Assembly (NCBI GenBank): GCA_973895155.1
Contig: OZ316898.1
Span: 9,762,286 to 9,826,285 of the forward strand
Direction of reading: 5' to 3'
Length of the DNA: 64,000 bases
DNA from: Marsupella aquatica
Lineage: Eukaryota > Plantae > Marchantiophyta
Shown here: positions 2,525-62,354 of the stretch, in pieces
Numbering within the stretch: the first letter of the stretch is position 1
Layout: every line of letters begins with the position of its first letter
Program-made: the position numbers and the translations under genes
The notes under the pieces: generated by a model
Database searches by the model: none
Told to the model about the DNA's origin: nothing
Seen by the model: the letters and a program-made list of their open reading frames with translations, nothing else

Positions 2525-2526
2525 AT

Positions 2527-10100: not shown

Positions 10101-10129
10101 TTGGGACACTGAGTGTTTTTGGTGGTGGA

Positions 10130-10245
10130 TGGAGTGTTTTTTTGCCTTGAAAACCTAAAGCAGGCCCATCCAACAGAGGATAGACGTCCTGCTCTGGAGC
10201 ATGCATTTTTATGTAGGGTAGCCACAAGGAGAAAATACCTAGGGA
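10130..10245 (+). repeat. Dispersed repeat fragment, inverted homolog of ~52040-52155
   Basis: TGCCTTGAAAACC..AAAGCAGGCCCATCCAA...ATGTAGGGTAGCCACAAGG matches the reverse complement of 52040-52155. Confidence 0.65.
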
Positions 10246-21279: not shown

Positions 21280-23670
21280 TTTCCACTGCTGGAATAGGAG
21301 GGAGACAGTGCTCTGATGGGTCCAAATTAGAAACCAGGAAACAAGGTACCTTAGTTAGGCTCATACAACTTTCACAACAAAGTTGTCTTCCAATAGTGGT
21401 GGAAGTGTTGAGTGAAGTCCTTACCGTCTCTGTCATACCAAGGCATTAAGTGTTTGCATGGCCATTATAGCATTTCTTATAACTCCACACAAGTGCAAGT
21501 GAGTTTTGGTGGTAGTGTAGCCAAATACTCCTCTTGTTGGTTGTGGTCTATATTTTTTCTTGACTCTGTCCATCATCTAGCACTTGCCACTGTCCAAATA
21601 ATTGCAAGTTGGTTGTGTGTCGCTTCAAGGCCTGCTGGCTTTAAGTCTCTTGTCTGGCCATTGCAACAACTTTCTTAGTTGTTGTTGTAGTGTGTCTAGA
21701 CATAATACCACAACTCTAATAGCACTTTAGAAGGTGCAAACTCCCTAATGGGAAGCAAACCTGAGTTGGCTTGCTCCACAAGGTTGCTAGTAACCTTTCC
21801 GAGATGAGGCAAAGGGAATGCATGCTTGGCATACAACTTCTTGTCCATGTCTTTGATGTACTTAACTGCATCAGGCCCTTGTGTAACGGATGCTGATAAG
21901 TGGTCCAACAATGTGTCAAACCTGCAATCCATGTGAATCACCATATATAAGCGAACCCAATCTCTGTAAGACTTAGCCCTCCCTAGGTGAAATTGAAAGT
22001 ATAAAATTGCATTGTACAAGACTATAGCCTTACCGTCTCTTAGTGTTAGCATGAACACAAGCCAAAAAGATTTGTTTTGCTCCCTAGTCGTGATTTTTTT
22101 TCACATTGGCTCTCAAATGGTTCGCACAATGGGCAGGAAATTTTGTTGGAAACACATTGTGAACAAATGCTTGTAGGCCCTTCTGTCTATCATAAATGAT
22201 TGGAATAGTAAGGTCTGCTATGCCATAAATTGACCGCTCCAATAATGACAAAAACCATGTCCAACTGTCAGTATTTTCCACTGGAGCAACATTGCCATAA
22301 CAAAGAATGTTGACTTGGGAGTTCCCATCAAGTGCTGTAGCTACAAAAAAGTTGGATTGGATACTTCCGATTCTTGGCATGGCACGCATCAATGCACACC
22401 ACAGGTTGACTGTAGTGCAAAGCTCCACAGGTTGCAGGAGGGCATGCATAAGAATGCTCGATTGAAAACTCTGTTGCCTTCTAGAGTAGACCAATCCACT
22501 ACACAGTTTGGATCAACGTCCTTGATTCTGTCCAAGAAGGATGGAATGAAGAGAAAACTTGCACTCTGACCACCAATGTGCCAATCTCGCACAAGATCTT
22601 GAGCCCGCCACATCTAATGGTAATTGCAGCTCTTTTTGTATTCCATCCTCAGTCCATTTAATATCTCTTTCATCGGCACTTGGACATTCATCACTACTCG
22701 ACGTGCAAGCGTCTCACCTAACCATGCTGATTTTTGGATAGGGCCTCACCACCTATGCTTATATTCTGGACAAGGGTGTTGAAGATTACAAACTGTGACT
22801 ATAAACTTACCATCCTTCTCACGTTGACATCTAACTTGAAATGGGCAGGGCTAAATGAGTTCAATATTATCATTGTCTTTTGGTGGCAAGAATCGACATT
22901 GCTCTCCACATGCTACTATCTGTGATTGCTTCTGCACCTTCTCCCTTCTTGCCGTTTGTGGAAAACTTGTTGGGACCCACTCCCAAGTGTGTGCAATGTA
23001 TGCCCTCTTGCTATTTTGCGTACCAATGAATTGGTGAATTGTATTGGCCTGAATTTCCTGCAATGGTGGTCTTGAATTTAGGGGCAATGGATTCTTTGTT
23101 ATTTCCCCTGCATTTTCTTCACCATAATATTCCTCTGATCCTGCCAAATGACTGAATCCAGCTTCATGGAGACCTGCAGATTCAATCTTAGCATCCGGCC
23201 ATTCATGCAGATCGACCTGCAGTTTGAATCTCAATATCCGACCCATAATTGAAATTGTTTCCTTTCCAATGAGGTATGATATTAGCTCCAAATCTGCACA
23301 CTCTAACTTTGTATTTGTATTTAGTCTTGAACTTGTGGCTCACCCTCCCATGCAACACACTCCATGAATCCAAGCACCGATCAAATTCATCAAAAGTAGA
23401 GAAAGATTCTCCAAGCCTAATACGACTAGCCTCCTCTTCCACTTCATGGGAGGACTTTCCTCTCAATAGTGGATTTCCTGGATCAATCTCAGAATTCCAA
23501 GATACAAAATGGCCCTGTAGTTCATTGCTTGGAGGCAACGGAAGCTTCTCCTCATTTGGGATATGTAATGGGTAAACATCCCCTCTGATCCAATCTGGCC
23601 CTATGTTTGCTTCAAAGTCTTCTTCCATTGTTGGTGCTACTGTTCTCTTCACATTTTGAATGTGCAATGC
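21280..23670 (-). mobile_element. Decayed Mutator-like (MULE) transposase: MuDR DBD, DDE, SWIM
   Basis: IRLGESFSTFDEF..KVRVC; VATALDGNSQVNILCYG..ENTDSWTWFL..IIYDRQKGL..CANHLRANV; TSNLVEQAN; TCTC..WPCKHL SWIM at ~21445-21500; stops and frameshifts present. Confidence 0.85.
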
Positions 23671-26608
23671 TAGGATTGTGCTTTGTGTTCTCTACAATAT
23701 GCCTACAAAAAATTCTGCTACTGCAATGTTTCAATGGAGAGAGTGCAAGTCACGGAACTCGACTACCTTAACACTTAGCTCTAGCGTCGCTGACTCTGAC
23801 GCCAAGCTCCTCTATGGTCCAAGCCCCGGAAGGGCCATCCGGTGAGGACTAAGTATGGGGAGACTAGTGGGCAACAAGGTGTTGCACTAGCAAAGGCAAG
23901 ATGCTTAGACTAGCTTGGGGCTGGTCGGGTCATGGGAAGGGGCCAAGCTCAAGGTGGACCGTCCGGACCCCCGAAAAGACTTTGAGTTTTGAGGGCTTGA
24001 GCAAGAGCTTGGACTCTTGGGCCCAAGACTAACAAAGTTTACTTCATGCGCAACGGACACTTGGCGCACAAGATACGGCGCGGCCGCCCGGGATACTCGA
24101 GTGATGACGGGGTTTGAGGGCCTAGGCATGAGCACTGGGTCGCCCTAAATGGTGGGTGGCGGCTTTGGCTCCGGCTTATGGCAAGGCCACCTAGGCTAGG
24201 GATGCTAACCTACTTACCGATGTCTGTTGAGCTTGAGTTAGGATGCTAGACTGAGAACGCCTAGATCTTTTGTATTACTTACCAAGGTGCTTGGTTGCTT
24301 GTGCAGACAACGAGGACCGTTGAGCAACAGTCATGTTAGGGAGCAAGTGCGACTTTGTATGGGAGTGGCCACTAGAGGTGCAAGAGGCATCAAGTTGCTT
24401 GCTCAAGGAGTTCCGTGGAGGAGTTTGGGCACCAAGGACACTAGATGTGGTGGGATTGGTGAGGGCGTTGGGTGGCTGGGTCCACCACTGTGCAGCTCTT
24501 CAATCTAGTACTAGACATAGCACAGTTGCTTGATCATTGTACCCTAAACTCTTGCCTAAACTGAAATGTCTCAAATTGAAGCACTTGAAATTGCCCTAAA
24601 TTTCACTTGGACCGCAGCTTCAATCACCCCGCAGTTCCATATCCCCGATGTGTCAACATTGAGTTGTGCAATTATCTCCTTGCAATGCAGCTTCGACCAG
24701 CTTCAACCTCTTCACTCTAATCACACCCTCAGCGCAACGCTCCATGCACAAAGTGTCCTGAGCAGTGTATGCAAATGTGTTAATTTTTATTCTATCCCAA
24801 GGGGCTCGACATTTTGCTTGGGAGAACCTTGGCCTCCCTGCCCGTGAGCCCCAACGAGTGTTGAAGGGCCAATATTGGGAGGGAACAGGTTGCACGACCC
24901 TCTCCCCCACCCTCACTTTTCCCCCCTCTCACCCGCGTCTGCTGCCTGAAATCCTGGCAACCCGGTTTTCTCACAACATACTCATTCAAACATACATTTG
25001 GGGTCCCACCGAGCCATTTTAGATGTAGTGGGTCTAGTTGAGTCGGCTGTTTTTGTTTGAGGGCCCCACCAAGCAAATCTCTCAAGAGAAAACCCTTCTA
25101 GATTTATCTTTATATACCCATTTATATATTACGTTGTGGGCCCTGAAGAGGGGATGGGTTACCTGCCGCAAGTGAATATTGGAATTCTTATACTCAAGAG
25201 GAGTTGTGGCCCTCATCTGTTCCACTAACATAGAGATTTGTATTAGAGAATCTCCTTGCTAGGATGACAAAAGGGTTAGGACTCATAACAATCTTACAAT
25301 GCAGATACAAAAGAAAATTCACAAGAAAGGTAGAGGAATATAGTTAGCAATGTCCTGTTTACAGGGTATTGTGGGCCATAATGCCCACAAGCTTCAGCTC
25401 AAGTTTTGAGGGGCTACAAAATCAGATTCAAGGAGGGCTTAAGGTGTAGGATAACCAGGTACCCTAAGAGTTGTTAACTGGGTGTCACAACCTATAGCCC
25501 ATAAGAGACCGTGGATTATGGAGGTTAAATTCTGAGTGTATTTCTATTTTATTTTCACCCCAAAACTTTCACCTCAGTTGCATGACCCTCGAGATACGAT
25601 GGATATGGAGTTCTAGATCCTTGTTGCATTTCCACCTCACTCACCCAAATATCCTTTCTTTGAGCATGAATAGAGAGGTGATGAAAAAAATAATCTCCCA
25701 TACCTTCCCAGGTAGCCAGCTCTATCACACAGGTCCGTCACAAGCTCCCTAGAACCAGCTACTCCTCAATGTCTTGGTTTGAATATCAATACTTACCAAT
25801 TGTCCCTTCATTGACTTTGCATTCAATACATCTACACTCTTCAAATTAGTGTGACTAACACTAATTTGAGAGAATAATTTTCAGGGTCTACTTGCAAATT
25901 AGTGTTAGTTACACTAATGTTATGCTAACATTATTTTTGCGCACATGAATTAGTGTTAGTGTGATCTTAAGAGGGAAAAATAAAGAGAAAAAACACACAA
26001 CAATTAATGTTACTTGGGACTCAAGATCATTCATTTTTTACAGACAATCTAAACTAAAGTGTAAAAAAGTTGTTTTGGAAACAAAAAAAAAATAGTGTTA
26101 CTTCGACTCAAAATCATTTTCACCAAAGAAGAGCAGAGGTTGCGACTCTGTTGTCACATCGCAGCTGTTGTTGTTCTTGGAGATGCCGCGGTTTCAGCTA
26201 CGATCGTCGGTGCTGTTCTCGAATCCGTTGCTGCGCGGCAGACAGCTGCAAGCCAGTGGTGGATCTCGATCGGACGTCATAACGAGCGCTCTTTGAGAGA
26301 TTCGAAGACTGTCCAGTGCCGTTCCCAATTTTTTTCCCATGCAGCTGGGTTTCCGGTGTTCGTTTCTACGGTAGTAGAAGAGGTCAACCAAGAGAAGCCT
26401 TTCTGTGGTCTGCGTGACAATAATGCTTGGACTAGAATGTATGGCATTGTCATCTGTCCGACTTGAAGATATCTCTGTCCTTGATATCGAAACTATGACA
26501 CGCCTAGGAACCTTCAGAGGTAGAACTCAGGTCCTGTCTACTTCTCTCTAGATTGTGGTGGTCTCTAGAACTCGGTCCTGTCTACTCCGAGGTTTCGTTC
26601 GTTCCACA

Positions 26609-29369: not shown

Positions 29370-31570
29370 TAGCGACCGTTAGAAGGTGTTGAATCTCATT
29401 TACCCAGAGAAAGAATATGCTGCCCAAAATCTAGCGACTTGCTACCATCCGCCTTTACTAAACCTAAGGTCCTTGCATGCACGTACATCAAAAGTCACTT
29501 CAAGGGTCATTTGAGCTTTAAGGTGCACACGCTGATAACCTATTAGGTTTTTCTTTGCCACGCCGTTCCTGCCACTCCCTGGGGGTACAGCATACAATTT
29601 CACCACAGTACTTCCACTCCTGCTCCCCTCGTTCCTGACCATAACTTCTACACGAAAGCTCAAATTGCCACAAACACTCGCATCATCTTCAATAGGTGGG
29701 TCGGCATCTTCAAGACTGAAAAGTATCTCCCGCTGGGTACTACCTTTTGCTTTGTAGAACGAATCAAGCACAAAGAAGAAGCAGACTTAAAGCTGAATTT
29801 GAAAGAAGTATATGACAACCCATGCCCAAACGCAAATACAGGCTCTCCTGTATAGAAGCGGTAGCTACGGCCAGGATACCCAGCTGAGATATTGGGGCGC
29901 ATATTCATGATTGTCATTGGCACTGTTGGAAAAGACTCTGGATATTGGAAGCTTCCCTCCTGGGTTATAGTCTCCAAAAATTATCCGTGCTAGAGCCTGA
30001 CCACCGGCTTGTCCAGGGTATCCAGCCCAGATGATGCTTGATATGAAGGGGTCCTCTTTAGCAAATGCTACATCTACAGGACCACCTGAAACAACGACAA
30101 GCACAACCGGACCTTTGGCAACTTTGGCGACTTCAGATATGAGCTTTTCTTCATTGCCTGGCAGTAGTAGACTGGTTCGGTCCACACCTTCTACCTCCAT
30201 CGAGAGACTCAACCCCACCACAATGACAACTGCATCAGCTTCAGTTGCTGCAAATGCTGCGTCACTGAAATTTTCATCCTTGCAAAATATATCACTGCAT
30301 GCTGGCCGGTAGTGGATATTGCGAACGTAATCGGATAAACCTTGCAGCGGGTTTATCCCATTACGTGATATATATACAAGGAATTTCTGCATAGTTGCCA
30401 AGTAATCTATTCTCTAGGTCATTTGCACTTGGACTCAGAACAGCCAAGGAATGGGAATTCTCCCAGGACAGCGGCAGTGCACTTTTATCATTCTTAAGAA
30501 GCACAATGCTTTGAAGTGCAGCTTCTAATGCAAGGGTTTGATGCGCTTCGGTACAGACATCATTGACGCTAAGATGTCCGTATCTCTGGCTTTGAGGATC
30601 ACCGTCAAAAAGACCAAGCCGCATTAGCACCGCAAACATATTGCGTAGTGCAACATTCAGATCTGACTCTTTCAGCTTGCCCTGGCTCATAGCCAGTTCT
30701 GCATGATCTCGGTTATCCCACAATTGAGATCTAACCCTGCTAGCAAAGAGTCGGCCACAGCATCCTCCAACGTTTTGGAATAGGCTGGCTCATTGGTCAT
30801 ATCATACACCGTATCACAGTCTGAAACTATGTAACCTTCCAAACCCCAGTTCTCTCGGGCAGTTTCTGTGAGGAAACTGTAGCTGCCACACATGGGTACA
30901 CCGTTCACCCTGTTGTAAGAGCACATCAGACCACTGGCTTTGCCCTCTTGGATACAGCTCTTGAAGGGCGGATTAAATGTGTCCTCCATGTCTTGCTGTG
31001 TTAGAACAGCATTGAAGTGATCACGGTCATCATTACCCCATTTCTCAAGGTCATAAGCCGAGAAATGTTGCAACAAGTTGATGTTTTTAGCATAAAGCCA
31101 GGAAACGAACTGCTCGTTCCCCTCATGAGATCGTCATCTCTCTCTTGCATTCCTCTTACAAATGCAGCTGCGTAGTTGCTTGATAGAACCGGGTCCTCCC
31201 CAGGAGTTTCCTGGCCTCGTCCCCATCTCGGATCTCGAAAGATGTTCACAACTTCACATTGGGCGACCAGAAAGTTAGCCCAGTTTGACCCACATTGTAC
31301 ATTGCCTCGTCATTTGGCCGCCCCGTGGAAAGTTCGAACCATTTGTTGTCAAAGCGACACATACACAGGTGGACGCCAATCAATCAAATCCTCCTCATCC
31401 TGAAGTAATTCAGCCCGTTCTTGTCGATTGGACCAGAGAAGCTCCTGCGAGCCAGCAAGACAGCCTTTTGTGCTGCCTTTCACCTCGATCAAAGGTGAGT
31501 TGAGACACTGGAATGATCGGTTGATCGATTGAGTGACTAATGCAGCTCCTCATTGTATGTTGTATAAATT
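29370..31570 (-). pseudogene. GH3 beta-D-xylosidase/arabinofuranosidase (BXL-like) pseudogene, apparently intronless
   Basis: [65 protein letters not shown] and a C-terminal Fn3-like region; about six frameshifts; fragments abut with no intron-sized gaps. Confidence 0.88.
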
Positions 31571-33070: not shown

Positions 33071-34718
33071 TAGCCAGCAAATGGACGTTGTTGTACCTAC
33101 TGTGTTTTAGAAGCAAGTCTATGTACTAGGTTATAGAAGCAAGTATATTCATGGGCATCCCCTTCCATTGGGTATCCCTTTTCAATCAATCCAAGAGTAT
33201 CCAAATCATTGGAATACATCTGATGGTACTGGTTTTCTCCCTCCTTTTTCACTTTTGTAAACAGATGGTATGGAAGCTATTGGGTGGGGTAGCTTAGTGG
33301 TTGATTTAGAAAGTGTCAATCTGATGCCCATCCCTCTTCTGATTCATGGTCTGTTTACTAAGGGCATCTCTTAGAAAACCATGAATCGAAAGAGGGATGG
33401 GAAGCTTCCCACCAGATTAATCCCATTTTGATTTATGGTCAAGTAACACTTGGCCTTGAATTTTGGCATATATCTTTGCTATATACTAGGAAAGGAAACT
33501 CCTAGCTCTGTATGGTTAAGTCCTTATTCTGTATTTAATGTATACAGTACTTAGGAAATAGAGTACACCATGAAAAGTGATAAGTCAACTAAATCTCAGA
33601 GGTTAGACATTGTGGTCCATCTGAGAATCACCCCAAAATATGTTGGCGGGTATGTTATTCCACATAGTGATTATAACTATGATCACAGTATGGGCAGAGT
33701 CTACACCTACGAACAAATAAACAGGTGCATGGAATTTAGGCGGTATGCAGGCCATTTAATGCCATAATGCTCCAACAAATTGTCATGTCGAGGGACAGTG
33801 CCTCTTATGCACATCGGCATGTCCCTCGCCTGCCCGCTAGGTATGTAGTTAGGGCTAGTGTACTACCTGAGTTAGCGACATGTTCTTGTAGCAAGTCTGG
33901 GCCGTTCTTGAAGCAAATGTGCTTGTTAGTGTGACGCCAGGACTTTGCTTGCTTAGGGCATGTCTTTCTTTGTGGGTTTTCAGTTCTTCTTGAATCGCTG
34001 TTGACAGAGCTCAGACAGTGCTCGTCAGTTCCGTACACGGGATTCACACAGCGATTCGTTAGATGCTCCCGGCCGATCTTGGCATCCCGCCGATTTTTGA
34101 TTCGATTTCAGTACGATTGTTTCTCTTACGCCTTTTATTCAAGAAGAACTCTGTGGTGAAGGGAAGAAAATTGGAGACGTGCTTCTCAGCTGCTCATGTC
34201 GGTTCAGACAATTCCCATTGAAGCCGGTGCAATTTCTTTGAGCAGCATTGGAATGGCGGGTTAAAAGTTATGGGTTTAATGTGGTGTTATGTGTATACAC
34301 CTAACATCCCCGGTTGAGCCCGTGCTTTTGTTCCCGGCTACCTTCGTGACCCCTTCTGCTATGTGCTGCCTTCGACTGTCACTGCCGACTGCGCATCGAC
34401 AACCGACTTGCTGTCGACTGCCTTTTTCTTTCGCGTTTTTGCCCCTTTTCCAGCGTTTCTTGTTTCCGGCCACGCATGACCACCTCCCGGCCGCCGCGTG
34501 CCCACTTCCCTTCCGACCGCGCGCCCTGTTTTTCTCTTTTTCGCCGTTTCCGGCTGTGGTCTCCCCTTCGCCTCCCTCCCGCATAAGGCAGGCTGCGCAT
34601 AGGGCATCGTGCCCTCTCATTTCTGCCAGCATTTTAATTAAGGAGGAAGGGATCCGACTAGCCAAGCACAAGTGCGAGGGGGGAGACAGAGCCGAGGCAG
34701 CCAGCAACGCAAGGAGTG

Positions 34719-35045
34719 GGCACGAGGCCCTAAGCAACATTAAGGAGAGGAGGGGGAGTACATTCAACTCCCTCTCTCGGGAGTCCTGCTAGGCACGAGG
34801 CCCTAGGCAAGCAATTAAAGCAGGGGGAGGGGGAGACAAGCGCAAGGAGAGGAGGGCACGAGGCCCTATGGAGGATTAAAGAGGGGGGGTTACATTCGAC
34901 TCCTTTCCCTGGAGTCCTTCTGCCACTCTGCCACTCTGCCAGGCACAGAAGCATTCATTAAAGCAGGAGAGGAGGGGGAGCGAGAGTGCCAGGAGAAGGC
35001 ACGAGGCCCTAATAAGTAACATTAAGGAGGGGAGGGGGAGTTAGT
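34719..35045 (+). repeat. Purine-rich repeated modules in the element leader
   Basis: GGCACGAGGCCCTA at 34719, 34792, 34855, 34998, each followed by ATTAA(A)G and GGAGGGGG-like tracts. Confidence 0.8.
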
Positions 35046-35375
35046 CGCTCCCTTCTCTTCGAGAGCACATGAGGAGCCAGGAGGGGGTGCAAAACCCTAT
35101 GCAGGGCCTGAGCCATTGATTGAGACCCCTTTTCTTTTCGTTTTTGGTCGCTGCGCGACCTGCAGCGCCCATGTTTTCCAAATCACAGTGGTTTGTGCAT
35201 AGGCCCTGGTCTTAATTGGGGCCCCATTTCTTTTCTTTCGCTGCGCCCTCGCCTCGCTTCCTCGCTTCGCCGCACTTTTTCCTCCTTAATTAAGTGCTCC
35301 GCAGCCTGTACGTACATAGGGTCTCGTCGCTTTTCCCTTGTGCTTGCCAGTTTCCAGGTCCACAATGGGGCCCGA

Positions 35376-35451
35376 TGTGTATACACTTAAGGGGCCCGTA
35401 TATGTATTCACTTAAGGGGGGGCCGGATGTGTATTCACTAAAAGGGGGTCC
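35376..35451 (+). repeat. Three ~26-bp tandem units ATRTGTATWCACTWAARGGGG
   Basis: Seen directly; related GTATACAC palindromes at ~34293 and ~35576. Confidence 0.7.
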
Positions 35452-37129
35452 ATTTTCAGTGTCTTTTCCCTGCCGCCGGCATTAGGCCATTCCGGACAAT
35501 TGGTCGCCACAGGTCATCTACATCGGGCTGCGGGCCCGGGGTATCCACATGGGACAGCAATCCCACATCGCCTATGTATACACATAGGCAAGCGCGACGG
35601 GGACACAATTTGAGGTTTAAGGGTCCTTTTTTTTCCGACGGTTTTTCGACGGTGACGGGTTTTCTCAGTCTTTATACATTTTGCACATTTTGGGTACTGT
35701 CACACAGCATGTCAGCAGACGAGCTGGGAGGTAGCAGCTCATCGCCACCAACGCCCAGGTACCACTTACGGAGTGATCCACGACCGTTGGTGCCCATTTC
35801 ATTGGAGTCTCGGCAATTTTGACGATGTCAGCAGCCATCAGCAGCACCCACACCACGCAACCCTTCTGCTACATTTGGCGGTCGCTTCACCACTACCCTG
35901 AAGCCTACTATTGCTTCTTTGCCCTTTACTCCTTCTGCATCACTGCTTGTTCCAGCTTCACCGACATACAGCATGGATGCCAGCCACTCATCTGGCCACA
36001 TTGAACGCTTCAGTGGGCGGCCAGGCACTGTTTCTTTACGTGAGTTCAAATCCACTTTCTACACTGTCATTTACGAATTGGAGTTGAAATACGGCAGCAA
36101 TTTCACCAATGCTTTTGCATTTAAGCAGCTAGCCAGGTATGTGCACCACGAGGCTTTGGATGTGTATGAGCAGCACTCTCAACGGCTGCTTGCTGTCACA
36201 CAATTGCCTAACCCTGCCTATGCCACTGCAATTGCGGCTGCCTCACAACTGGCATTACAGAATGCCATTGCAGCCCATGCTGCTGCTCCTGCCACTTCCC
36301 CTCCTACTCCAGTTCCCACCACTGCACCAGTTACTCCCACCATCTTGGCACAGGCTACATCAGGCATTTCTCCCACCATTGATTCCCCTGCCTTTGCGGA
36401 TCCAGTGGCTGAGTTTTTCCAGGTTCTTGAATTGGAATTCCAAATCAAGAGTGCTGACAAAATTATGCAGTTGGCCACCTTTGTGAGGCAGCGCGATGAA
36501 ACATTGAAGATGATGTATCGCCGGCTTCTCAAGCTGAAGGACACCCAGAGCATCACTGACCTGGAAGCTGCTCATCGCTATCTTCGCGCATTGGAGGGCA
36601 CATCAGCTCTCCATTCGCAAGTGTTGCAGCAAGTATTCTCAGAGTTTGGAGACAGCTACACCTTGCTCAATGTCTATGACACTGTTGAGAAACTTGAGTT
36701 GGCCCATGCACATTATGAGGCCAGTATTGCGCGTCCACCGCGATCCAGGTACCAGGCTGCTGCCCCTACAATGGCCCCCCCTTCCCGTGTGCCACAATAT
36801 GCTTCCAAGACCAAACCAGCACATGTTGCTTTCATGCTGTCATCTTGCAACTACTGTGGCAATCCTAATCACAAGGCTAATGATTGTGATATTGTTGCTG
36901 AGGACCTGTCTTGTGATTTTTGCGGGAAAGTGGGCCACTTGGAGGCAGTTTGTTTTGCCAAATTCCCAGAGAGGAAGCAGCTACGACAACAGGCCACTCA
37001 TCCTGCTCCTGTTTCCACTCCCCCACCAGCTAGGAGGGCTCATACTGCATCCGTTGCTCCTCCTTCCAATGGCAAAGCAACCAGTGCCACCAAATTGCCC
37101 AAGCAGCAACAGAAGCTACCCGCTCAGAA

Positions 37130-37767
37130 GGCCTCATTCACAATTGGACGACCCAAAAGGAACGTCACACTCAAAAGTGACCATAGTTTATTATGCTTTA
37201 GGACATCATTTGTAAGGTGTAATGAGATGATATGCAAAATTTGATGTACTATACTTAATAAACATCCTGTAGGTTGGTAACATTAATTAAACTATCTAGC
37301 ATTTGAGACTTTGAAGCTTTCCTTATATGTCCTTCAAAGATCGATAAAATGACTTGTCACGCAACTAGTCACATCATTTCAGCACTCGAAATGACTCTAA
37401 AACTTGCATTTTAGACAATGAAATTTTACCAAGGCATGCATACTAATAGAATAATCTTATATTTTAAAACTCAAATATTGACACACACTAAACCTTTATG
37501 TACAGGACAAAAATAATTAGTAATTTTGGCTTATTTAGGGCCATCAATAATAGGATCCCTTAAAAAAGTTAAAAACTTGATTTATCTACATGGTGAGGTA
37601 GGTTACACCATGTAAAATAGTCTTGTGAAAAAATTAGACTTAAATGTCTTGAGATAAAATCATGATGAAGCTTTTTCCATGTTATGAAAGTCATTTTTCA
37701 CTAAAAAAACATGTTTTTGAGTCCTAAAAGTGGTTCCTATGAGGTACACCCAATTGTGAATGAGGCC
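37130..37767. mobile_element. MITE-like insertion (638 bp, AT-rich) in gag
   Basis: Perfect 18-bp TIR GGCCTCATTCACAATTGG with TSD AGAA (alternatively 17-bp TIR with TSD CAGAAG); removing it restores the gag frame (PAQK-EAHTAQ). Confidence 0.92.
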
Positions 37768-39459
37768 AGAAGGAGGCTCACACTGCACAGGCAACTCAAC
37801 TCCAGTCTCTGACTCATGAGGTTGAGTCCCTACGTGCCCAACTTGCCAACATCAAAGGCAAGTCAACTACCTCTGCTGGTCCTTCTCAACCGGCTGGTCA
37901 CGTGCAACCCATCCCTGGCCCAGGCACCACTGACAGTTCAGCACCTCTACCCCGCTCTTTCTATGGCTTGCCATTTGATGCTCATATGGGTGAGTGTGTG
38001 CTGTCCTCTGCTCCATAGCCTGGCTTTACAGTAGACTTTTCAGATTCATTCTGCCCTTCCTATTTTGCTTACCAGCAGGCCCATGCTGCCTCCCGTATTG
38101 CTCCCACACGCCGCATTGTACAGGCTGATGGTCTTGCTGCTGGTCCTATGACTAGAGCCAGGGGCGCTCGGGCTGTCATGCCCCAATCTTTTCAGCCACT
38201 TACCCTTGCTGAAGAGCACACCTTGTTGGCGAGGGGGGAGGGAGTTGCAGCTACATCCATTCCACCACCAGGTGCTGCTGACATTTCATAGGGAGTTGTT
38301 TCTCCTGAGCTGCTTGAGTATTTCACCTCCGGTATGGCACAAAGGATTCTTACAACTCCACTTTTTAGTTGCCATGATTTACAACTGGATGCTAGAGCTA
38401 TCATCAGAGCGCTAGAGGGCTCACTGCATTCTTCATCAGCCCCTGTGACACCGGTTTTGGAGGTCCAATCTCATGTACATACTGGATCTTCTTCTTCTCC
38501 ATTACATGCTTCCACTGGTTTGGTTATCCCAGTACCAATTTCCAGTGGTAGAGATGACAGTATTGCTGCAGATTGTGTGACCAGAGCTACACTGGATTCT
38601 GGTCATGCTGCTCCATCTTTCCTGACTATGCTGTTGAGTGGAAAGACCGTGGACACTAACTCCCTTCACAAGGTACCTCATCATTTGCCAAAAGTGGTGC
38701 CTAGCGACAAGACTTCAGTTTCCACCACCATTGCCATTGTTGACAACAGGAATTCAGCGGTCAAGTTGGAGGGTCACACTCCTCAAGTGGTCATGCTGGA
38801 CACAGGCGCTCAACCAGTGATATTGGGCATTCAGTTTGCCAAGAAGATGGGACTACTGACTGATCATTTACAGCAATCCAGGTGGCACATTCGGACTGCT
38901 AGTGGCACTGTGGAGGATGTGCTGGGTGAGAGTTCTACTTTACTCACTCTCACTTTTAATGGAGGTACAGATCAGGAATTGCATTTCCCAGTCAGATGTT
39001 TGGTTACCAGTGCCACTACGTATGATGTGCTCATTGGCCAGGAGGCTTTGTTCCCACCAGGTTTTACCATTGACAATTGGCATGAGCATGCATACTACAG
39101 AGTTGATTGGCATACGGATGGCTCACACTTGGGCTACATTCCACTTGATTTGCATGGTGCCCATACACCTATGGCTCACCACTGTGTGTTGAAAGCAGTG
39201 CACACAGCTACCTATGTCAACCACCCATTGCAGGATTGGATTGAGGAGGATGATGATGAGGTGGCTACTGCACATGCTGCTGCACGTATAGCAGCACTTT
39301 CCAGCAACGTGGATCATCAACCAGAGGTGGTACAACGGCTCCAAGCAGCCCATGGACCTTTGGTGGCTGCATTGCGCAAATTTGAGGATCTTGGGCAGCA
39401 CAATGGCCAACCAATAGCCCCAATCTTGAGCGCACCCGTTACATGGACTCCTCCTTCAG

Positions 39460-40400
39460 ATGGCCTTATATTGCTTGAGCTTTTTGGTGGCATTTCTACA
39501 GGCCTGGAAGCTCTCCTACAGTCTGGCATGGTGGTGAAGCAGTACATCTATGTGGATATTGATCCAGGTGCAAGGCAAGTGGCTGAATCCCGTCTGCTGG
39601 AATTTTCAGAGCGATTTCCCCAACAGTTTCCACACAATGCATGGAAATCTGCATTTTCTTTCTTTCCTCCAGATATCCAGCTTGTCCAGCACCGGCACTT
39701 AACCCTTCTTGGCTCCCTTGATTTGATCATAGCTGGTTGGGAATGCCAAGGGTTTTCAGCTGCTGGTCACGGTGCTGGACTGCATGATTCTCGTTCTAGC
39801 CTTTTCACAGCATTGGTTCAGATTCTCACCTGGGCTCAATCCCTTTATCCTGCTGTTGGTTATATCATTGAGAATACTCCATCTCAATTTGACCAGCGTC
39901 CACAGGTCAAAGAGGATTTCAGTGTGGTCCAGCACTACTTGGGACCACCCCTTCTCATTGATGCAGTGCACTGTGGTTCTTATGCACATCGTCTTCGTAA
40001 CTTTTGGACTAACCTTGCACCACCTTCCTTGTTGGAGTTAGCTCTTCACCACACATCCAGGGACACTAACCTCACAGTGGACCAGATTTTGGATCCTGAC
40101 AGTTCTTGCCAACCAGTTACACGGCAAGAGCCAGCACCTTGGTTCCAGCCAATACCATTGGACAGCCCCGTGCTGCTTGGCCTACATTTGTATCCTTTCC
40201 AGGTGCACATGCCTTTCAGGGTGATGGTCCTGGCCTGGTTTATCAACATTCTACCGGTACTTGGGATGAACCTAGTCCTGAGGAGAGAGAACGGGCTATG
40301 GGCTTCCAATCCGGTACTATAGGTCACACCCAGATCACCAGGCTGGCCAGGAATGCTTTACTTGGCAGGGTAATGGATCTTAATGCTCTCACTTGGCTTC
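39460..40400 (+). other. DNMT3-like C5 cytosine methyltransferase domain within the polyprotein (1-bp frameshift at ~40146)
   Basis: Motif I LELFGGISTG, II YVDID, IV IIAGWECQGFS, VI IIENT, VIII IDA..SYAHRLRNFWTNL, IX ERERAMGF, X TRLARNALLGRVMD. Confidence 0.9.
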
Positions 40401-43400
40401 TGGTCACTTGCATCCTTTTTCAGATGTACATTCATCCAGCATCTGGAGTTCCAGCTCTACCACTCCATGGTGCTGCTACATGGCATCCCGACCAGGTGCA
40501 CTTACCTCTATTCAACACTCACCGCTTCAGTCCAAGTGTTGGGGGGGAGGAGGTCCCTTGTAATGTGGCTGATATTATTTTTGAGTTTCATGGTGTGGAC
40601 CAACCCAGATCAGCAGGTACAACAGGCCTTGGAGAGGCCTCATCACCTTATCAGCAGCATGCTAGCAGCTTGGACAGTGGTGAGGCTAGCACTTCTGGCT
40701 CTTCAAGTACGAGTACATCAGGTCCTATTCCTAGTGTTGCCAACTACACATTCATCATGGGCAACCACCTGAGTAAAAGACAGAAGGACCAGCTGCTGAA
40801 TTTGCTCCTCAAGCATGAGAATGTGTTTGCTTTCTCTATGAAGGACTTGGGTAAGTGCAAGACTATGCAGTTCTCCATTGAGTTGGCTGATGAAACACCT
40901 ATCTTCAGGCGGAGACACCGTTTGAGTAAGCATGAGTGGCAGCTGGTGGATGAGAGGTGCCAAGAGCTCTATGAAGCTGGTCTTATTCAGCCATCTACAT
41001 CAGATTTTGCAGCAGCTACAATGATGCCAACAAAGAAGGATTCCAGTGGATTGTGGACAGAGAAGAGCATGTGTGGGGACTACAGGCCACTGAACCTGGT
41101 CATACCCCAGGACAGGTACCCCATGCCACGGCCAGAGGAGCTATTTGACAGCATTGGAGACTCAGACATCTTCACTCTTGTGGATCTAAGGCAAGGCTTC
41201 AACCAGATTTTGCTGCTTGCAAAGGATCGCAAGAAAACAGCTTTCCATGGTAGTAACCAACTATGGGAGTGGTTGGTGATGCCATTTGGCTTGAAGAATG
41301 CGCCCATATTCTTTCAAAGAGTCATGGACCAGGTTCTTCAAGGTGCTGAGTTTCTGAAATGCTACATTGATGATGTGTTGGTCCACAGCAAAGGATTTGA
41401 CCAACATCTACTTGACCTTGAGGAGCTATTCATGAGGCTTAAGAAGGTGAACCTAAAGATACACCCCAAGAAGTGTGAATTTGCTGTCAGATCAGTAGTA
41501 TACCTTGGGCACCGCATTCTTCCAAATGGAACCATGGCTCACTGGGCCAAGGTGGTATCCATCTTGGAAATGCCCACTCCTACCGATGTTCACACTTTGA
41601 GGAGTTTTATTGGGTTGTGCAATTACTATCGGATCTACATCAAAGATTTCAACACCATTGCACACCCATTGTATGCTTTGTTGAAAAAGAATGTGACTTG
41701 GACATGGAGTACAGATGCTGAGGCAGCATTTGCCACTTTGAAGGAGAAGCTCTCAGAATACCCGGTGCTGAGAAGACCTGATTTCAGCAAGGTCTTTGTG
41801 CTCCACACAGATTGGAGTGCCCTTGGGATTGGTGCCATTCTGGGCCAGCATGATGAGGAAGGTAAAGAGTACGTCATTGCCCATGCATCCAGGAGCAACA
41901 ATCAGGCAGAGAGTCATTATTCTTCGTATGAGGGTGAATGCCTTGCTGTTGTGTGGGCTGTCATACATTACAGGCCCTACCTCTATGGGACCAGGTTTGT
42001 CCTCTACATCGACCACTAGCCCTTGAAGTGGTTGATGACCAACGACAAGCTTACTGGCAAGCTTGCTCGTTGGGCGCTCATACTCCAGGAGTATGATTTT
42101 GAGGTAATTCATAGGCCTGGTGTGACACATCAAAATGCTGACACTATGTCCCACAACCCTTTGATTGCCTCTGATGATTCCTCAGATACACGGCAGGATT
42201 TTGACCAGGTTTCCATCCTGCCTACATTTCATGCATCTACCTATCTTGCTTTGCTGCCATGCTACGTTGTTGACCAACCTGTGGTGGACATATGGGAGGA
42301 CAACGACACTCTGAGATTTTTGCGGCATGGGGAGTACCCCATACATGTTACTGCTGCCCAGAGAGACCGAATTCAGCAAAGGTCCAAGCGTTACTTGTGG
42401 AAGGGAGATCATCTCGTGCGCTGCTTGCCAGACAGGGAAGTGGTGGTTCCACCCATTCATGAGAGGGTTGGCCTTATCCGTAAGGTACATTCTGAGCTTG
42501 GTCATTTTGGCGTTAAGAGGACTTACAGCCTCTTGGTCCCTCATTATCATTGGAGAGGCATGCATGGCCAGGTTCGAGATGTTATTGCCCGGTGTGAACA
42601 GTGTGATAGGGCGAGGACTTCTTTCACATCTCGGCAACCCACACTTCATCCACTCCCTATTCAGGGCATGTTTTATCGCTGGTCATGTGATTTGGCTGGA
42701 GAATTACCCCTCACGTCTCGGGGTAATCTTTACATCATGATCATGATAGAGCATTTCTCCAAGTGGATAGAACTTGTGGCATTGCCGGATAAGACTCCCG
42801 TAGCACCAGCCAGGCATTCCTGCAACAAGTTCTTAGTCGCTTTGGAGCTTGTGCAGAATGTCTCACTGACCAGGGCTCAGAGTTTAGAGGAGAGTTCCAG
42901 GAGTTGCTTGATCAGGCCCTCATTGATCATCGCCGGACATCACGAGATCACCCACAGGCAGATGGCTTGGCAGAGCGCATGGTTCAGACATGCAAGAAGG
43001 GTCTCCAGAAGATTTGCCTCACCAAAAACAAGGAGGATTGGGACCTGGCCTTACCCTACATTGCCATGGGGTATAGGATGTCCAGACATGCATCACTGTC
43101 TAACTTTTCTCCCTACTTCTTGTTGTTTGGTCGTCACCCAGTTCCACCTTCTGCTATTGCTGCTCACATGCTTCAGGTGGTAGACTTGGATTCAACTGTG
43201 ACTTGGTCTGATGTGATCTCTGAGAGGGCTGCCCTATTCAGGAGGGTTATGCCCATGGCCATGGAGAATTTGGCCATCGCACAACACAGGGACACATTGC
43301 GTTATGCACACACACGAGGGGGCACTTTTCAGCCCAAGGTCAGGAAGTTTGAAGTGGGAGATTTTGTGTACTTGCAACGGCAAGCTAACGACACCCTGGA

Positions 43401-43577
43401 CACCTCTACCAGTCGTACTATTCTCAGGGTTAAAGCTATTCGACCGTCTGGAGTGCTAGAGTTACAAGGGGCAGATGGGCGCACAATTGCTGACAATGCC
43501 AAGAATTGCGCCCCTTGTCATCTGCCTAACCTGGATCCCACCATTGTGACTCCTACCTGGATTCCACCTGTGGACTA

Positions 43578-43725
43578 CCCTTGCAAAATGTGTTTGCAAA
43601 TTGATGATGCTGACCAGATGCTGCTGTGTGACAATTGCAATGGAGGGTACCATCTTTTCTGCCTTCGGCCTGAACTTACCCAGGTGCCAGAAGGGTTATG
43701 GTTTTGCCCTTCCTGTGCTCCACGT
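43578..43725 (+). other. PHD finger at the integrase C-terminus
   Basis: CKMC..DQMLLCDNCNGGYHLFCLRPELTQVPEGLWFCPSC, a canonical C4HC3 pattern. Confidence 0.92.
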
Positions 43726-44913
43726 GCTACCTGAATTTTCTTCAGCCCTCCTTTTGGCTGTGGTCTGGGGGGGATACAGAGGTTTACACCTCCACTACGT
43801 ACATACCACTTCATTTGCTTTTTCTTGGCACTTGTGAATGTGATTGAACTTTTTCTATGCATGTTGGTTGCTAGCAGCTTGCACATATGCCTTGCCGGTG
43901 ACTTGTATGTTTTTGATACACTATGGCTACGATACTATATGTCACGACAAAATGAGAGCTTAAGCTCAAGTTGGAGGGGCCTATTAATCAGGGGTCAACT
44001 AATGAAATTCATAGGATTCAGATGCGAATAAAATTAGATATATTCAAGTGATGTTAGCAAAAAAATTGAAGATTGTATATGCCTATTATTACCCATAATG
44101 CTTTGGTAACAGGATCTCAATTCAGTTGCCTGAGAGATTTTAATTGTGTACTCATTGATGATAATTATTTTTTGAGGGTTATCCTAGCACTCCTCTGAGA
44201 TTGTAATAACCTGGAGTGACCTCCCCATTGTGCTTAGTTAGCTTTGAACAAAGAAAGTGTGCTGCTAGTTTTTGTCTACAAATATGGATGTGTATTTGTG
44301 TAGTTTCGAAAGGTAAGGCCCATACTTGCTAAACTAACTACTGTACAGTCCCCAAAGGGTTGGGTTATAATCCCTGAGTTAGGGCATCCATTGGAAAGGG
44401 GTGCTTTGGTTCTAAACATCATTCTGTTGGTGCATGGCCATTCAGCCTCCTTGCGCTCTCTCCTTCTGGCACTCATTCTTTGGAAGAGCCTGTTTGATTG
44501 ATTTCTCAATTTGTTGGCAACTACAACAGAAGATTAGGTTGAACAATCTTAGCTCTATTAGTTACTAAGATTTGATATATTGACACATGTTCTGTCTGAA
44601 ATCACTAAAATGCCACACTTTCTTAGGGAACCATAATTCATCAAGTTTGGGGATAATCTATAGTAGAATTCACCATAAAGGTCTACTCACAGCTTATTCC
44701 ATAGACTAAAGTCATAAGTCATAGTTTCTTTGTTAACAGAAATTTTTAATGTTTAGATTATACTTATGAGTAATGGAACGTGCATGAGGAGTCTGGAACA
44801 AGGAGACATTCCTCTGCATACACATGGGTATTCACGCTATGAGAAAGTGCAACAATTCAATTCAGTGGTAATGGGGTGATGCCAATTGTTGTCTTGGTCG
44901 TGCATACAGCATC

Positions 44914-45336
44914 TGGTAGCCAAATTGTGATTATAGATCCAACCATGGTTACTTTAGATTGATCTCAGTTTAAAAAAAATGGTGTCCTAGGAAATTGCTA
45001 TGGTAGCCAAATTGTGATTATAGATCCAACCATGGCTAAGTTAGATTGATCCCGGTTATGAAATTGGCGTTCTAGGAAATTGCTATGGTAGCCAAATTGT
45101 GATTATAAATCCAACCATGGTTAAGTTAGATTGATCCCATCTATGAAAGTGGCGTTCTAGGAAATTGCTATGGGAGCAAATTGTGATTATAGGTCCAACC
45201 ATGGCTAAGTTAGATTGATCCCGGTTATGAAATTGACGTTCTAGGAAATTGCATATGGTAGGCAATTATGATTGTAGATCCATCCATGGTTGAGTTAGAT
45301 TGATCTCGGTTTAAAAAATTGGCGTTCTAGGAAATT
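44914..45336 (+). repeat. ~85-bp tandem repeat, 5 copies, upstream of ARL2
   Basis: Units start at 44914, 45001, 45086, 45171, 45256 (TGGTAGCCAAATTGTGATTATAGATCCAACCATGG...CTAGGAAATTGCTA). Confidence 0.93.
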
Positions 45337-45662
45337 CAAACAAAAAGTGTGGCAATATGAAACTTTGTGTCGTCCCTTCAGGTCGTTCGCCACTACAGCA
45401 GGTCGAAGCATTTCTCAAGCTTACACAAAGAAATCTGGGCTCTACTGAAAGCCTGTCTCGTTTTCGTTCGCTACTACATTGGGTTAAAGCATTTGTTCAA
45501 GTCTCAGCACATAAATCTTAGCTCCAATACAAGCGCTCTGTCTGCGCACGAGCATTCAGGAGTAGAGGACATGACTTCTTTCTGCGTAGGGGACTGGTGA
45601 GAAGTGCTGTGTAGATCTGTCAGTGAAGTTCTGCAGATTGGATTCGAGGGAGATATTGAGCA

Positions 45663-47702
45663 ATGGGGCTGTTGTCGATCATTCGAAAGGTGAAGCGCAA
45701 GGAGAAAGAGATGCGCATTCTCATGGTGTACGTTGCAGCCCTCATTTCTTTGTTGTTTTTGTTTTGCCCCTCCTATTCGCATTCCTTTCGATACTTTTTG
45801 CGGCTGGCCCGTCCATGCATCCATTCGTCCTCAACCATTACCCTGGGAGTGAGTGACTTGAATTGCATTGGAGGTTGTAGAGCTCACAGGTCTCAAATAG
45901 GCTTGGATTAGGAATTGCACAAAGGCGGCACCGGCTTGCATTAAGAATCTCGTTTTCTGTCCTTTGGCAGTTAGGTTAGGGTTGCAAATCTATTCTCTCA
46001 CTCTCCAACTGAGTGAGTTTCAATGTGTTATGGCTTTCTGAAATCCCCAAAAGTTCGTTTACTCTGAATCGGTCCAATGTTCTGTTCCTCGTATGATCAA
46101 ATTAAAATTTTGAAAAAAAGTTCTTCAGGGGAGAAATTTGCATCACGTCGGGGAAGAGTAGGAATTGGACGAAAGGAGTGCCTCTGAGGGTAGAATTGGA
46201 ATTTGCAGAAGGGATATGCGGGCTTCGCTGATAGGCAAAATTTTGGACAATGCAGAGGTCTGGACAATGCCGGAAAGACTACAATAGTCAAAAGAATAAA
46301 TGGTGAAGATACGAGTGGGATAAGTCCTACTTTGGGATTCAACATTAAGACCATGCAATACGAGAGGTTAGACAACCTCACCCGGATTCTTTCACTATTC
46401 ATGTCATGTTCAAAGCTATCCGCTTTTGATGTCTCTTTCTGTAAAGTAAACTGCTTGTGTATGGCCAAGAAATTCGAAGTAAGCAAATTGTGTGAGGGAC
46501 CTTTCTGGACTTGAGCTGCAATGTGGGTTGGATCTTTGGCAGCTATCGTCTGAACATCTGGGATGTTGGAGGCCAAAAGACTCTACGGGCTTACTGGAGG
46601 AATTACTATGAGCAAACAGACGGCTTGATATGGGTTGTGGACAGCTCTGACCTTCGCCGTTTAGAAGACTGTCGGCAGGAGCTTAGTGGACTTCTCCAGG
46701 AAGAGGTCTGACGCTTGCCTTGCAACAGGGTTTACGTTTCGCTTACTTAGGGGCTAACTCGGATCTTAGGTTTTAACTGTCTGAGTGAGAACTTCTTAAT
46801 GAACACAGTAAATCGTTTTTATTATGATCTACCTTGCTCGAATTAACTCGGACCTAGGGCTTAAGTCTCTGAGTGAGAACTTGTCAATGAACACAATAAA
46901 TCTGTTTTATATGCATCTATGTTACTCGAAACCTAGCTCATCGCACAGGCAGCTTTGGTGAGGTTTCATTAGGAAACTTGTTGAATCGCCAAGGCCAACT
47001 TGTTGGGATACTGAGGTTGGTGTTTGGTTTTCTGCGCTTCATATTCATGGCCTGGGATCCTGTGTGGGATGAGAGTCAGTTGATGCTAATGCCAAATGTC
47101 GCGCAGAAATTGCTCGGATCTTCCTTACTGATCTTTGCCAACAAACAAGATCTCAAGGGCTCTCTGAATCCCGAAGCGATTGCAAAGGTTAGTGAACATC
47201 TTCAGCACGGAGTTGGGGGACTAATCTGCTTCATTACATGATAGTTGGTGCCCATCAAGACTAGGAGAATTAAAGTGGAGTGTCTCAGAAGTGAGAATAA
47301 CCGAATCTTTCTGATTACTGTCCACGTGCAAATCGTCTCAAGTAAACTCTCGAGGTGTTCTGTAATTACTCCAACTTATTAGCATTACCAATTTAAAACC
47401 ATATTGTCCTTTCATGCATAGCATGGTCAGTAGACTAGTAGCTGTATTGGTACAGGATCATAAGTAGAATTCGACTCACCTGACTGCTTCCCATATGAAC
47501 AGAGCTAATTTCTTCGCTGCGTGCTCTTATTTCTAAAGTTCTTCTGATTCGTAACTCACGACAGGTGCTGAATCTTGAAGCGATGGATAATAGTCGAAAC
47601 TGGAAAATTGTTGGCTGCAGTGCTATGACAGGCGACGGACTCCTACAGGGATTTGATTGGCTAGTTTCAGACATTAGCTCTCGAATCTATATGCTTCAAT
47701 GA
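45663..47702 (+). CDS. ARL2: ADP-ribosylation factor-like GTPase 2 (TITAN5)
   Basis: Five GT-AG exons: [22 protein letters not shown]|[19 protein letters not shown]|[10 protein letters not shown]|FANKQD|[16 protein letters not shown]. Confidence 0.95.
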
Positions 47703-61116: not shown

Positions 61117-62202
61117 ATGGGTAAAAACAAATCCAGTAAGCTGATAGATGAGAACATGCCCGTGAGAACTTTGAGATCCCCAACAGTGAAAGCGGTGGCC
61201 GAGCTGATCAAAGATGGCAAAGCACCTCGCATAGTCGTTCTCATGGGAGCTGGCGTGTCCACCTCCGCTGGAATCCCGGATTTCAGATCACCGAAAACTG
61301 GTCTGTACGCAAACTTGGCACGGCTCAACTTACCACATGCGGAGGCTGTGTTTGACATATCCTACTTTCGACAGAACCCTAATCCCTTCTATGCTCTAGC
61401 TCGGGAGGTATACCCTGGAAAACACAAACCAACTGTGGCTCACGCTTTTATCGCTCTGCTCGCCAAAAAGGGCCTTCTTCACATGCTCTTCACGCAGAAC
61501 ATCGATTGCCTTGAGACAGCGGCCGGGGTGCCGGCGGAGAAGATCATCCAAGCTCACGGAAGTTTTGCTACGCAGCGGTGTATTGACTGCAATAGTGCCT
61601 TCCCAGACGATCTCATGTTGTCAAATATCCAAAGTGGAGATGTGCCCCATTGCATCTTACCGGAATGTAATGGTTTGGTCAAGCCAGACATAGTTTTCTT
61701 CGGAGAAGCGTTGCCTAAGAGCTTCTTTCAGAACAGGCCTAAGATTGCACAGGCCAGTTTGGTGATCGTCATGGGCACTAGTCTTACCGTCCACCCATTC
61801 GCAACTTTACCTGAGTTTGCTCTAGATGGTGTCCCTCGGGTTTTGATCAATTTAGAGAGGGTAGGTGATTTGGGGAGCAGGGTGGATGATGTCTGCATCC
61901 TCTCGGAGTGTGATGCGGGGGTGAGGAGTTTGGCAGACGCTCTCGCATGGAGGGAAGAATTGGAAGCCCTATGGAAAGAGGTATCCGGTCAAGAGGCTGG
62001 TGGAGATGTTGCGGAACAGCTGCCCGACACCAGAACCAAGGACGAAATACTCGAAGATGAGATCGAGACCCTGACTCGAGAAGTGGATCACACCCTCAAG
62101 CTCTCGAAAGCCCATCAGCTGCATTTGGAGGATGATGTTCTTGCGAACGCTACCGAAGGCCCCTCAGGGCTATTTTCGGGGAAAACAGGAGGATCACTCT
62201 GA
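61117..62202 (+). CDS. NAD-dependent deacetylase, class I sirtuin (SIRT2/Hst2-like), intronless, fungal-like
   Basis: GAGVSTSAGIPDFRSP, FTQNID, AHGSF, CIDC..CILPEC zinc site, KPDIVFFGE, GTSL; intact 361-codon ORF. Confidence 0.93.
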   Translation: MGKNKSSKLIDENMPVRTLRSPTVKAVAELIKDGKAPRIVVLMGAGVSTSAGIPDFRSPKTGLYANLARLNLPHAEAVFDISYFRQNPNPFYALAREVYPGKHKPTVAHAFIALLAKKGLLHMLFTQNIDCLETAAGVPAEKIIQAHGSFATQRCIDCNSAFPDDLMLSNIQSGDVPHCILPECNGLVKPDIVFFGEALPKSFFQNRPKIAQASLVIVMGTSLTVHPFATLPEFALDGVPRVLINLERVGDLGSRVDDVCILSECDAGVRSLADALAWREELEALWKEVSGQEAGGDVAEQLPDTRTKDEILEDEIETLTREVDHTLKLSKAHQLHLEDDVLANATEGPSGLFSGKTGGSL

Positions 62203-62354
62203 ACTAAATAGGACCAGGAAAGAGTCAGTCTACTCAGACGAAGCTAGACTGAGAATACCGAAACATTGGAAAAGCTTCAAGTTCGATACCGGTGAAGACT
62301 TCATTACAATTTCATCGGTCCCCTCGAAGCAACTTTTTGATTTACATTCCCTGT

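Follow-up and report, generated by a model that had tools for sequence, protein, structure and literature searches.

Retrotransposons with a DNMT3-like cytosine methyltransferase in Pol have been described from dinoflagellates and from a charophyte alga, as the original prediction for the present locus had noted for methyltransferase-carrying retrotransposons. In the accessible text of de Mendoza et al. 2018 (PMC5890265), KnitGypsy-Dnmt3 of Klebsormidium nitens has a Gypsy domain set, an intronless DNMT3-like domain in the Pol open reading frame (ORF), DIRS-like split repeats in the layout A-coding-B-A-B, and purifying selection on the methyltransferase. SymbioDIRS-Dnmt3 of Symbiodinium, described in the same text, also combines DNMT3 and reverse transcriptase (RT) in Pol with the A-coding-B-A-B layout and integrates by a tyrosine recombinase. 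The dinoflagellate domains methylate CG in yeast, and methylation of the complementary DNA (cDNA) by a packaged enzyme is already hypothesized there for such elements. The locus analyzed here is on a stretch of 64,000 nucleotides, referred to as the window, from the liverwort Marsupella aquatica (assembly GCA_973895155.1, contig OZ316898.1, positions 9,762,286 to 9,826,285). A Ty3/gypsy-type element occupies window positions 33781-43949 on the + strand. Read from 5' to 3', the domains identified in it by a Pfam scan are gag, protease, C5 methyltransferase, RT, RNase H, integrase, and PHD finger (Table 1). With moderate confidence, it is proposed that this is a multi-copy liverwort element whose Pol-encoded DNMT3-like enzyme would methylate newly made DNA of the element itself, probably in the CG context, before integration or in the course of it.

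The window element works like, and probably belongs with, KnitGypsy-Dnmt3, to which it is likened by its description; the hosts differ, an alga versus a liverwort. Neither target-site duplications nor TG...CA ends are mentioned for KnitGypsy-Dnmt3 in the accessible text, and the same holds for a PHD finger and for the CA-NN-TG junction presented below (PMC5890265). In contrast to SymbioDIRS-Dnmt3, the window element has a DDE integrase and 4-bp duplications; rve and H2C2 integrase domains were found in the domain scans instead of any match to the tyrosine recombinase family. Gypsy-7a_cRei of Chlamydomonas reinhardtii is another green-lineage gypsy element with a PHD finger in Gag-Pol, and its activity and an intergenic bias have been reported, but it has ordinary long terminal repeats (LTRs) and no methyltransferase in the domain list of the accessible text (PMC9940879).

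The methyltransferase domain is intronless and is located inside the Pol ORF. Its N-terminal part is in the frame of the protease (ORF 38292-40322) and its C-terminal part in the frame of RT (ORF 40100-42019), the reading frame being split by a single frameshift near 40134-40153. The original prediction had placed a complete C5 methyltransferase between protease and RT in one ancestral frame. This was confirmed by the order of the Pfam matches and by the natural homologues P0200, P0335, and P0329, in which protease, methyltransferase, and RT are encoded in one unbroken frame. The span proposed at that time, 35709-43734, is correct for the coding region and falls short of the full element; the protease, methyltransferase, and RT of the predicted polyprotein stand, while the C-terminal PHD finger, the 638-bp insertion, the stops, the integrase frameshift, and the GWECQ motif had gone unmentioned. 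The window copy is dead, with stops at 35820, 38016, 38289, and 42017, the 638-bp insertion, and frameshifts in the methyltransferase and integrase. The ends of the insertion may be usable as weak splice sites.

The window enzyme was matched to the Pfam DNA_methylase family using HMMER, as had been suggested, with an E value of 1.8e-6 and a score of 28.1 bits (cut-off 22). The four motifs quoted in the original prediction are all present, LFGGISTG at 39480-39503, IDA..AHRLRNFWTNL at 39957-40016, ERAMGF at 40289-40306, and RLARNALLGR at 40340-40369, and the DNMT3A counterparts given for them there appear in the HMMER alignments to PDB chains. The catalytic Cys is found in GWECQ (39735-39758), ENT at 39867-39878, and HRLR inside 39957-40016. 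A profile of 26 family sequences was compared with the PDB and gave 98.7 bits for DNMT3A, 44-52 for DRM2-type chains, 36 for M.HhaI, and 22-23 for DNMT2. The AlphaFold model of homologue P0003 has predicted local distance difference test (pLDDT) values mostly of 85-95 across residues 81-410. The fold matches of this model are DNMT3B (Z of 27.7, root-mean-square deviation of 2.7, 278 residues aligned), DNMT3A (Z of 26.5), and the CpG enzyme M.MpeI (Z of 24.4); the margin over M.MpeI is thus ~3 Z units and applies to P0003, not to the window copy. DNMT3A is also the top Foldseek match (E value of 6.9e-18). By profile and fold, the methyltransferase is nearer DNMT3 than DRM, DNMT1/CMT, DNMT2, or the prokaryotic enzymes. 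DNMT3A and DNMT3B (PDB 6u8p, 4u7t, and 6w89), the top profile and fold matches, have the same motif order and catalytic residues as the window enzyme, which differs from them in its identity of ~20-24%, its GWECQ motif IV, the lack of PWWP or ADD domains, and its position inside a polyprotein. The motif order of DRM is permuted, unlike that of the window methyltransferase.

A prokaryotic or viral source closer than DNMT3 was considered and rejected. There are 234 phage records that match at <60% identity (22-28% for the ten listed) and 19 viral-contig loci that match weakly. When the ORFs of these loci and the four top phage proteins were scored with the family profile, none exceeded 69.5 bits, the value of the best phage protein, compared with 98.7 bits for DNMT3A. 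No family members were found in the viral contigs.

These comparisons also bear on the methylated context. Moss DNMT3 acts on CHH besides CG, sequence cannot reveal the context, CWG is not depleted in the element, and its loss of CG is unspecific, so that methylation of a non-CG context (CHH or CHG) or of the element RNA has to be weighed. This alternative is judged decidedly improbable, since the nearest folds are those of the CpG enzymes DNMT3A/B and M.MpeI, DNMT2 is much lower by profile, and the dinoflagellate retrotransposon DNMT3 methylated CG only (accessible text of PMC5890265).

The repeats and ends of the family were established using five complete relatives from metagenomes, all with the A-coding-B-A-B layout (A of ~315 bp and B of ~175 bp). 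These relatives start with TG, decayed in one of them, and finish with CA. The 4-bp target duplication is perfect in the window and in four of the five relatives, with 3 of 4 bases retained in the fifth; a 5-bp match appears in none of the six copies. The window copy is reduced to A-coding-B, with TG...CA ends and the duplication AAAT. No terminal direct repeat was found in the window element, which is therefore without the two identical LTRs of a canonical LTR retrotransposon, although TG...CA ends and a short target duplication are common to both. The window repeats have no clear similarity to those of the metagenome copies. Sequencing reads from runs X1 and X3 contain joints of A to B (34133-34139 to 43774-43778) and of B to A (43949/43950 to 33781, with the spacer GC in X1), and the family of the window element itself thus has the full split-repeat layout. 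Exactly two bases are present between CA and TG in 13/13 internal B-A junctions (GT in five, GC in three, AT in two, and TT, GA, and TC), CA or TG having decayed in several. A G-run precedes the first B in 14/14 related copies examined. Among the metagenome insertions, 12 finish in B-A-B and 3 in a single B.

Other copies and segments were also observed. At 18087-18566 of locus L026, an A-B unit stands alone between perfect 4-bp duplications and corresponds to a solo LTR; this unit and the single-B forms are also compatible with recombination. In locus L034 (695-1047), ~35 bases of the end of B and a CA-NN-TG junction precede the first A, a single case that fits an uncut left cDNA junction. 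Short CpG-bearing CACGACA units are retained at the 3' end of B (window 43925-43949; loci L004-L030), while the coding region has lost most CpG.

The fixed CA-NN-TG junction in these copies suggests that the integrase cuts internal junctions to form the ends of the element. In the proposed replication route, the RNA would start inside the first A and end inside the last B. The plus strand would be primed at the G-run before B and would copy B, the junction, and A, restoring both ends and leaving CA-NN-TG junctions inside the cDNA. Recessed CA ends are the substrate of DDE integrases. Cutting by the integrase after CA on each strand of CA-NN-TG would account for TG...CA ends and a 4-bp target duplication without LTRs. 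A related activity is reported for foamy virus, whose integrase cleaves palindromic LTR-LTR junctions (accessible text of PMC1180852); that junction is a product of replication (the 2-LTR circle), whereas elements of the window family permanently contain a copy of the junction, and its cutting is predicted. The polyprotein would be packaged and cut by its own protease, so that methyltransferase and RT would lie side by side in the particle. The new double-stranded cDNA would then be marked by the enzyme, and the insertion would arrive resembling methylated host DNA.

The best PDB matches of the PHD finger are CHD4, WSTF, EHD3, ATXR5, BAZ2B, and KDM5. The fingers of CHD4, WSTF, ATXR5, BAZ2, and KDM5 are readers of unmodified H3 tails, and binding of such tails by the finger of the element would bias the sites of insertion. 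Because it is in the same polyprotein, the finger could also bring the enzyme to chromatin. An active enzyme might then act after integration or in trans, either silencing its own copies or the neighbouring chromatin and so limiting the load on the host, or methylating competing foreign DNA, for example of viruses; self-limitation (PMC5890265) and an anti-viral role (PMC6338049) are both in print in the accessible texts. Such a role is regarded as somewhat unlikely. Within Pol, the methyltransferase has the protease and RT as its neighbours or, in algae, RNase H and the integrase, and both positions would package it, while the PHD finger is on the integrase, distant from the methyltransferase. 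The argument for an anti-viral role leaned on an absence from land plants (accessible text of PMC6338049), which is contradicted by the window locus.

From 1,788 candidates with lengths of 400-2000 residues, an initial search identified 75 homologues. Those with names are from Calypogeia fissa (78%), Sphagnum magellanicum (73% over 27% of the query), Closterium, Chlamydomonas eustigma, and Monoraphidium, together with a Chrzof1 protein, a label that we take to mean Chromochloris. By sequence match, the family spans bryophytes, Closterium, and chlorophytes. None of the matches with names is from K. nitens. A profile search gave 659 clusters at an E value of 1e-30 or better, a count inflated by flanking sequence in the profile. 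In the 207 family proteins inspected, the methyltransferase follows RT/RNase H in 99, directly precedes the integrase in 35, follows the protease in 16, and precedes RT in 6; the other 51 are too short for the layout to be called. P0010, P0017, and ~130 others are of the chlorophyte type, with the methyltransferase between RNase H and integrase, and several of these have no Pfam DNA_methylase match and are thus unannotated.

A tree of 165 domains, rooted at its midpoint, places the window enzyme in a clade of 20 (support of 0.986) whose named members are Closterium; the RT-first layout appears in none of the other 19. Co-descent was assessed using 61 proteins with both domains and the window, in trees without an outgroup, only two of the 61 sharing the layout of the window. 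Of 20 well-supported RT splits, 15 recur in the methyltransferase tree, compared with a mean of 0.11 and a maximum of 2 in 200 trials with shuffled labels. This recurrence indicates co-descent of the methyltransferase and RT, and it fits one old acquisition followed by long co-descent. Acquisition in the K. nitens lineage is presented in the accessible text of PMC5890265, while the trees obtained here point to one old green-plant family. A wider history can be offered tentatively, as possible and short of probable: an ancient integrase-type clade, reaching from chlorophytes to liverworts and mosses, in which the DNMT3-like enzyme and the PHD finger would predate land plants, the enzyme would have moved once within Pol, true LTRs would be lacking, the cDNA would be self-methylated and cut at junctions, and multiplication in the liverwort would be recent.

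The 38 metagenome loci represent ~22 insertions, all of them degenerate, with an identical gene order as far as each locus reaches. At 4185-12411 of locus L037, there are two element copies tail to tail, and a related insertion of 830 bp is repeated several times. For the selection comparison, the window was paired with 20 of the 38 loci, one per presumed insertion, with L034 and L038 omitted. The median proportion of nonsynonymous differences (pN) in the methyltransferase is 0.23, against a synonymous value (pS) of 0.71. The corresponding median pN values are 0.14 for RT, 0.19 for the protease, 0.22 for gag, and 0.33 for the spacer before the methyltransferase. On these values, the methyltransferase is under purifying selection.

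The depth of the unique flanks in run X1 is 22-24, and that of two element contigs, which differ from the window at 3/331 and 6/321 bases, is ~1,300. Read depth is not equal to copy number, but these values suggest tens of near-identical copies. The methyltransferase frameshift is absent from most of the depth at the break, 1,022 of 1,103 in X1 and 22,266 of 34,601 in X3. The depth of the insertion-free gag-pol joint is low in X1 (27) and X3, and many family copies may carry the 638-bp insertion. Run X14, guessed to be RNA and from another organism, has contigs over the methyltransferase, at ~88% identity, and also over a neighbouring gene; this run may contain DNA, and nothing is concluded from it.

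The window copy is broken at several places, and its methyltransferase could in principle be a chance passenger of this one copy, or the contig an algal contamination. The same architecture in 38 metagenome loci and 207 proteins, together with the purifying selection, argues against the former. An exon of the neighbouring RETICULATA-RELATED gene is liverwort-like. Among the 120 matches listed out of 450, it is 89% identical to Calypogeia fissa and 78-80% identical to two Riccia species, and no other named plant exceeds 69%, values that point most likely to a leafy liverwort as the host. A contig from run X1 covers 33500-33818 free of differences, bridging the 5' junction of the element, and the insertion is flanked by a target-site duplication. 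Both possibilities are refuted by these results and retain a negligible probability. Three of the outcomes that the original prediction had named as fatal to it, namely a methyltransferase confined to this copy, neutral evolution, and contamination, are therefore contrary to what was found.

Several observations weigh against methylation of new element DNA by the route proposed above. In motif IV of the window enzyme, the canonical Pro-Cys of DNMT3 is not present; Glu replaces the usual Pro before the catalytic Cys, as in ~90 of the 164 family proteins, among the 207 inspected, that have a full methyltransferase domain. In yeast, no methylation was obtained with the domain of the Klebsormidium Gypsy element, which the authors called inconclusive, DNMT3B having failed too (accessible text of PMC5890265). 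The observed/expected (o/e) ratio for CpG in the element, 0.18-0.37, is matched in the same window by a Copia element (0.25-0.39) and by MULE-like remains (0.24-0.31), and CpG depletion as a sign of self-methylation was rejected since these are equally depleted. Synonymous sites are near saturation, and the ratio of nonsynonymous to synonymous substitution rates (dN/dS) of 0.13 is only rough. The A-coding-B form of the window copy is equally explained by recombination between two B repeats. Visual inspection of the sequence that follows A, in the window copy and in eight relatives, showed no tRNA primer site for the first strand, with no tRNA set searched.

The altered motif IV, the inactivity of the Klebsormidium domain in yeast, and the unspecific loss of CpG would each suit a domain that serves the replication complex chiefly by binding DNA or RNA or by flipping bases and that transfers methyl groups little or not at all. 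We consider this unlikely. Across chlorophytes and streptophytes, 85-100% of the 164 domains retain the S-adenosylmethionine (SAM)-binding motif I, the Cys, the Glu-Asn, and both Arg; the catalytic Cys is present in 98%, the Glu in 100%, the Asn in 96%, and the two arginines of motif VIII in 100% and 98%. None of these residues has been lost from the window copy. Pro-Cys is found in ~46 of the 164, and the model of P0003 covers the whole DNMT3 fold.

Table 1. Features of the methyltransferase-bearing element in window coordinates
Feature	Position	Strand	Evidence
Left target-site duplication AAAT, 4 bp	33777..33780	+	Sequence comparison of ends
Repeat A, 5' end of element, begins TGTCATG	33781..34138	+	Comparison of ends; read joints in runs X1 and X3
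5' untranslated region, GC-rich, short repeats at 34718-35040	34139..35708	+	Sequence
gag with CCHC zinc knuckles; stop at 35820	35709..37129	+	Pfam; 72% to gag of P0002
AT-rich insertion of 638 bp with 17-bp terminal inverted repeats, like a miniature inverted-repeat transposable element (MITE); splits gag-pol	37130..37767	.	Sequence; GC 0.31
gag-protease linker; in-frame stops at 38016 and 38289	37768..38726	+	ORF map
Aspartic protease, LDTGA at 38796-38810	38727..39200	+	Pfam PF13975 E 6.7e-7
DNMT3-like C5 cytosine methyltransferase; motifs I to X, unpermuted	39450..40417	+	Pfam, profile; fold via homologue P0003
RT (YIDD at 41363) and RNase H; stop 42017-42019	40760..42094	+	Pfam PF00078 E 3.6e-28, PF17919 E 9e-32
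DDE integrase with H2C2 zinc finger; frameshift near 42790-42794	42284..43560	+	Pfam, ORFs
PHD finger, end of integrase; stop at 43732-43734	43576..43719	+	Pfam PF00628 E 1.6e-11
G-run immediately 5' of repeat B, likely polypurine tract	43766..43773	+	Sequence; related copies
Repeat B, 3' end of window copy, finishes CACGACA; without terminal A-B pair	43774..43949	+	Comparison of ends, reads
Right target-site duplication AAAT, 4 bp	43950..43953	+	Comparison of ends

The CpG o/e ratio is 0.73 over 34300-35700, in the 5' untranslated region. The element is inserted ~1.7 kb upstream of a gene at 45660-47241 that we take to be ARL2-like. Tandem arrays with units of 85 bp and 136 bp are present at 44889-45314 and 62220-63172. 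The repeats of a Copia-type LTR element at 2180-6530 (+ strand) share 97% identity over 300 bp, and its pol has an internal deletion; sequences at 21696-23691 (- strand) are presumably the remains of a MULE-like transposase. A gene at 29442-31309 (- strand), presumably beta-xylosidase-like (GH3), is broken across several frames and apparently without introns. An intronless Sir2-family ORF of 361 residues is found at 61117-62202 (+ strand; Pfam E value of 8e-58), with a CpG o/e ratio of 0.70 and thus less loss than most neighbours. It looks fungal to us (presumably Hst2-like), and horizontal transfer or a foreign stretch is possible.

Transposons with DNA methylases were stated in 2019 to be absent from land plants such as tracheophytes (accessible text of PMC6338049). 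The accessible parts of PMC12344493 and bioRxiv 10.64898/2026.05.21.726589 mention 'streptophytes' and name no land plant, and their trees may already include land plants. The original prediction knew of no land-plant example, and a literature search, with most subscription papers, theses, and Repbase outside its reach, likewise gave no published land-plant description and no split-repeat gypsy element with integrase-type ends. Elements of this kind are already in print; the land-plant range, the breadth of the family, and the chemistry of the ends are new, and the present element is the first liverwort example found in the available literature.

The role of retrotransposon-borne methyltransferases has been a standing question since 2018. 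The occurrence in a liverwort of a multi-copy family that has relatives in Calypogeia and Sphagnum takes away the premise of a loss from land plants (as given in the accessible text of PMC6338049). Pipelines for finding LTRs require paired terminal repeats and would miss such elements, which may explain why they were overlooked. The split repeats and integrase-type ends suggest that these elements replicate in a manner intermediate between LTR elements and DIRS-type elements, and the question of what the methyltransferase does moves into the bryophytes, where methylomes and genetics are practical.

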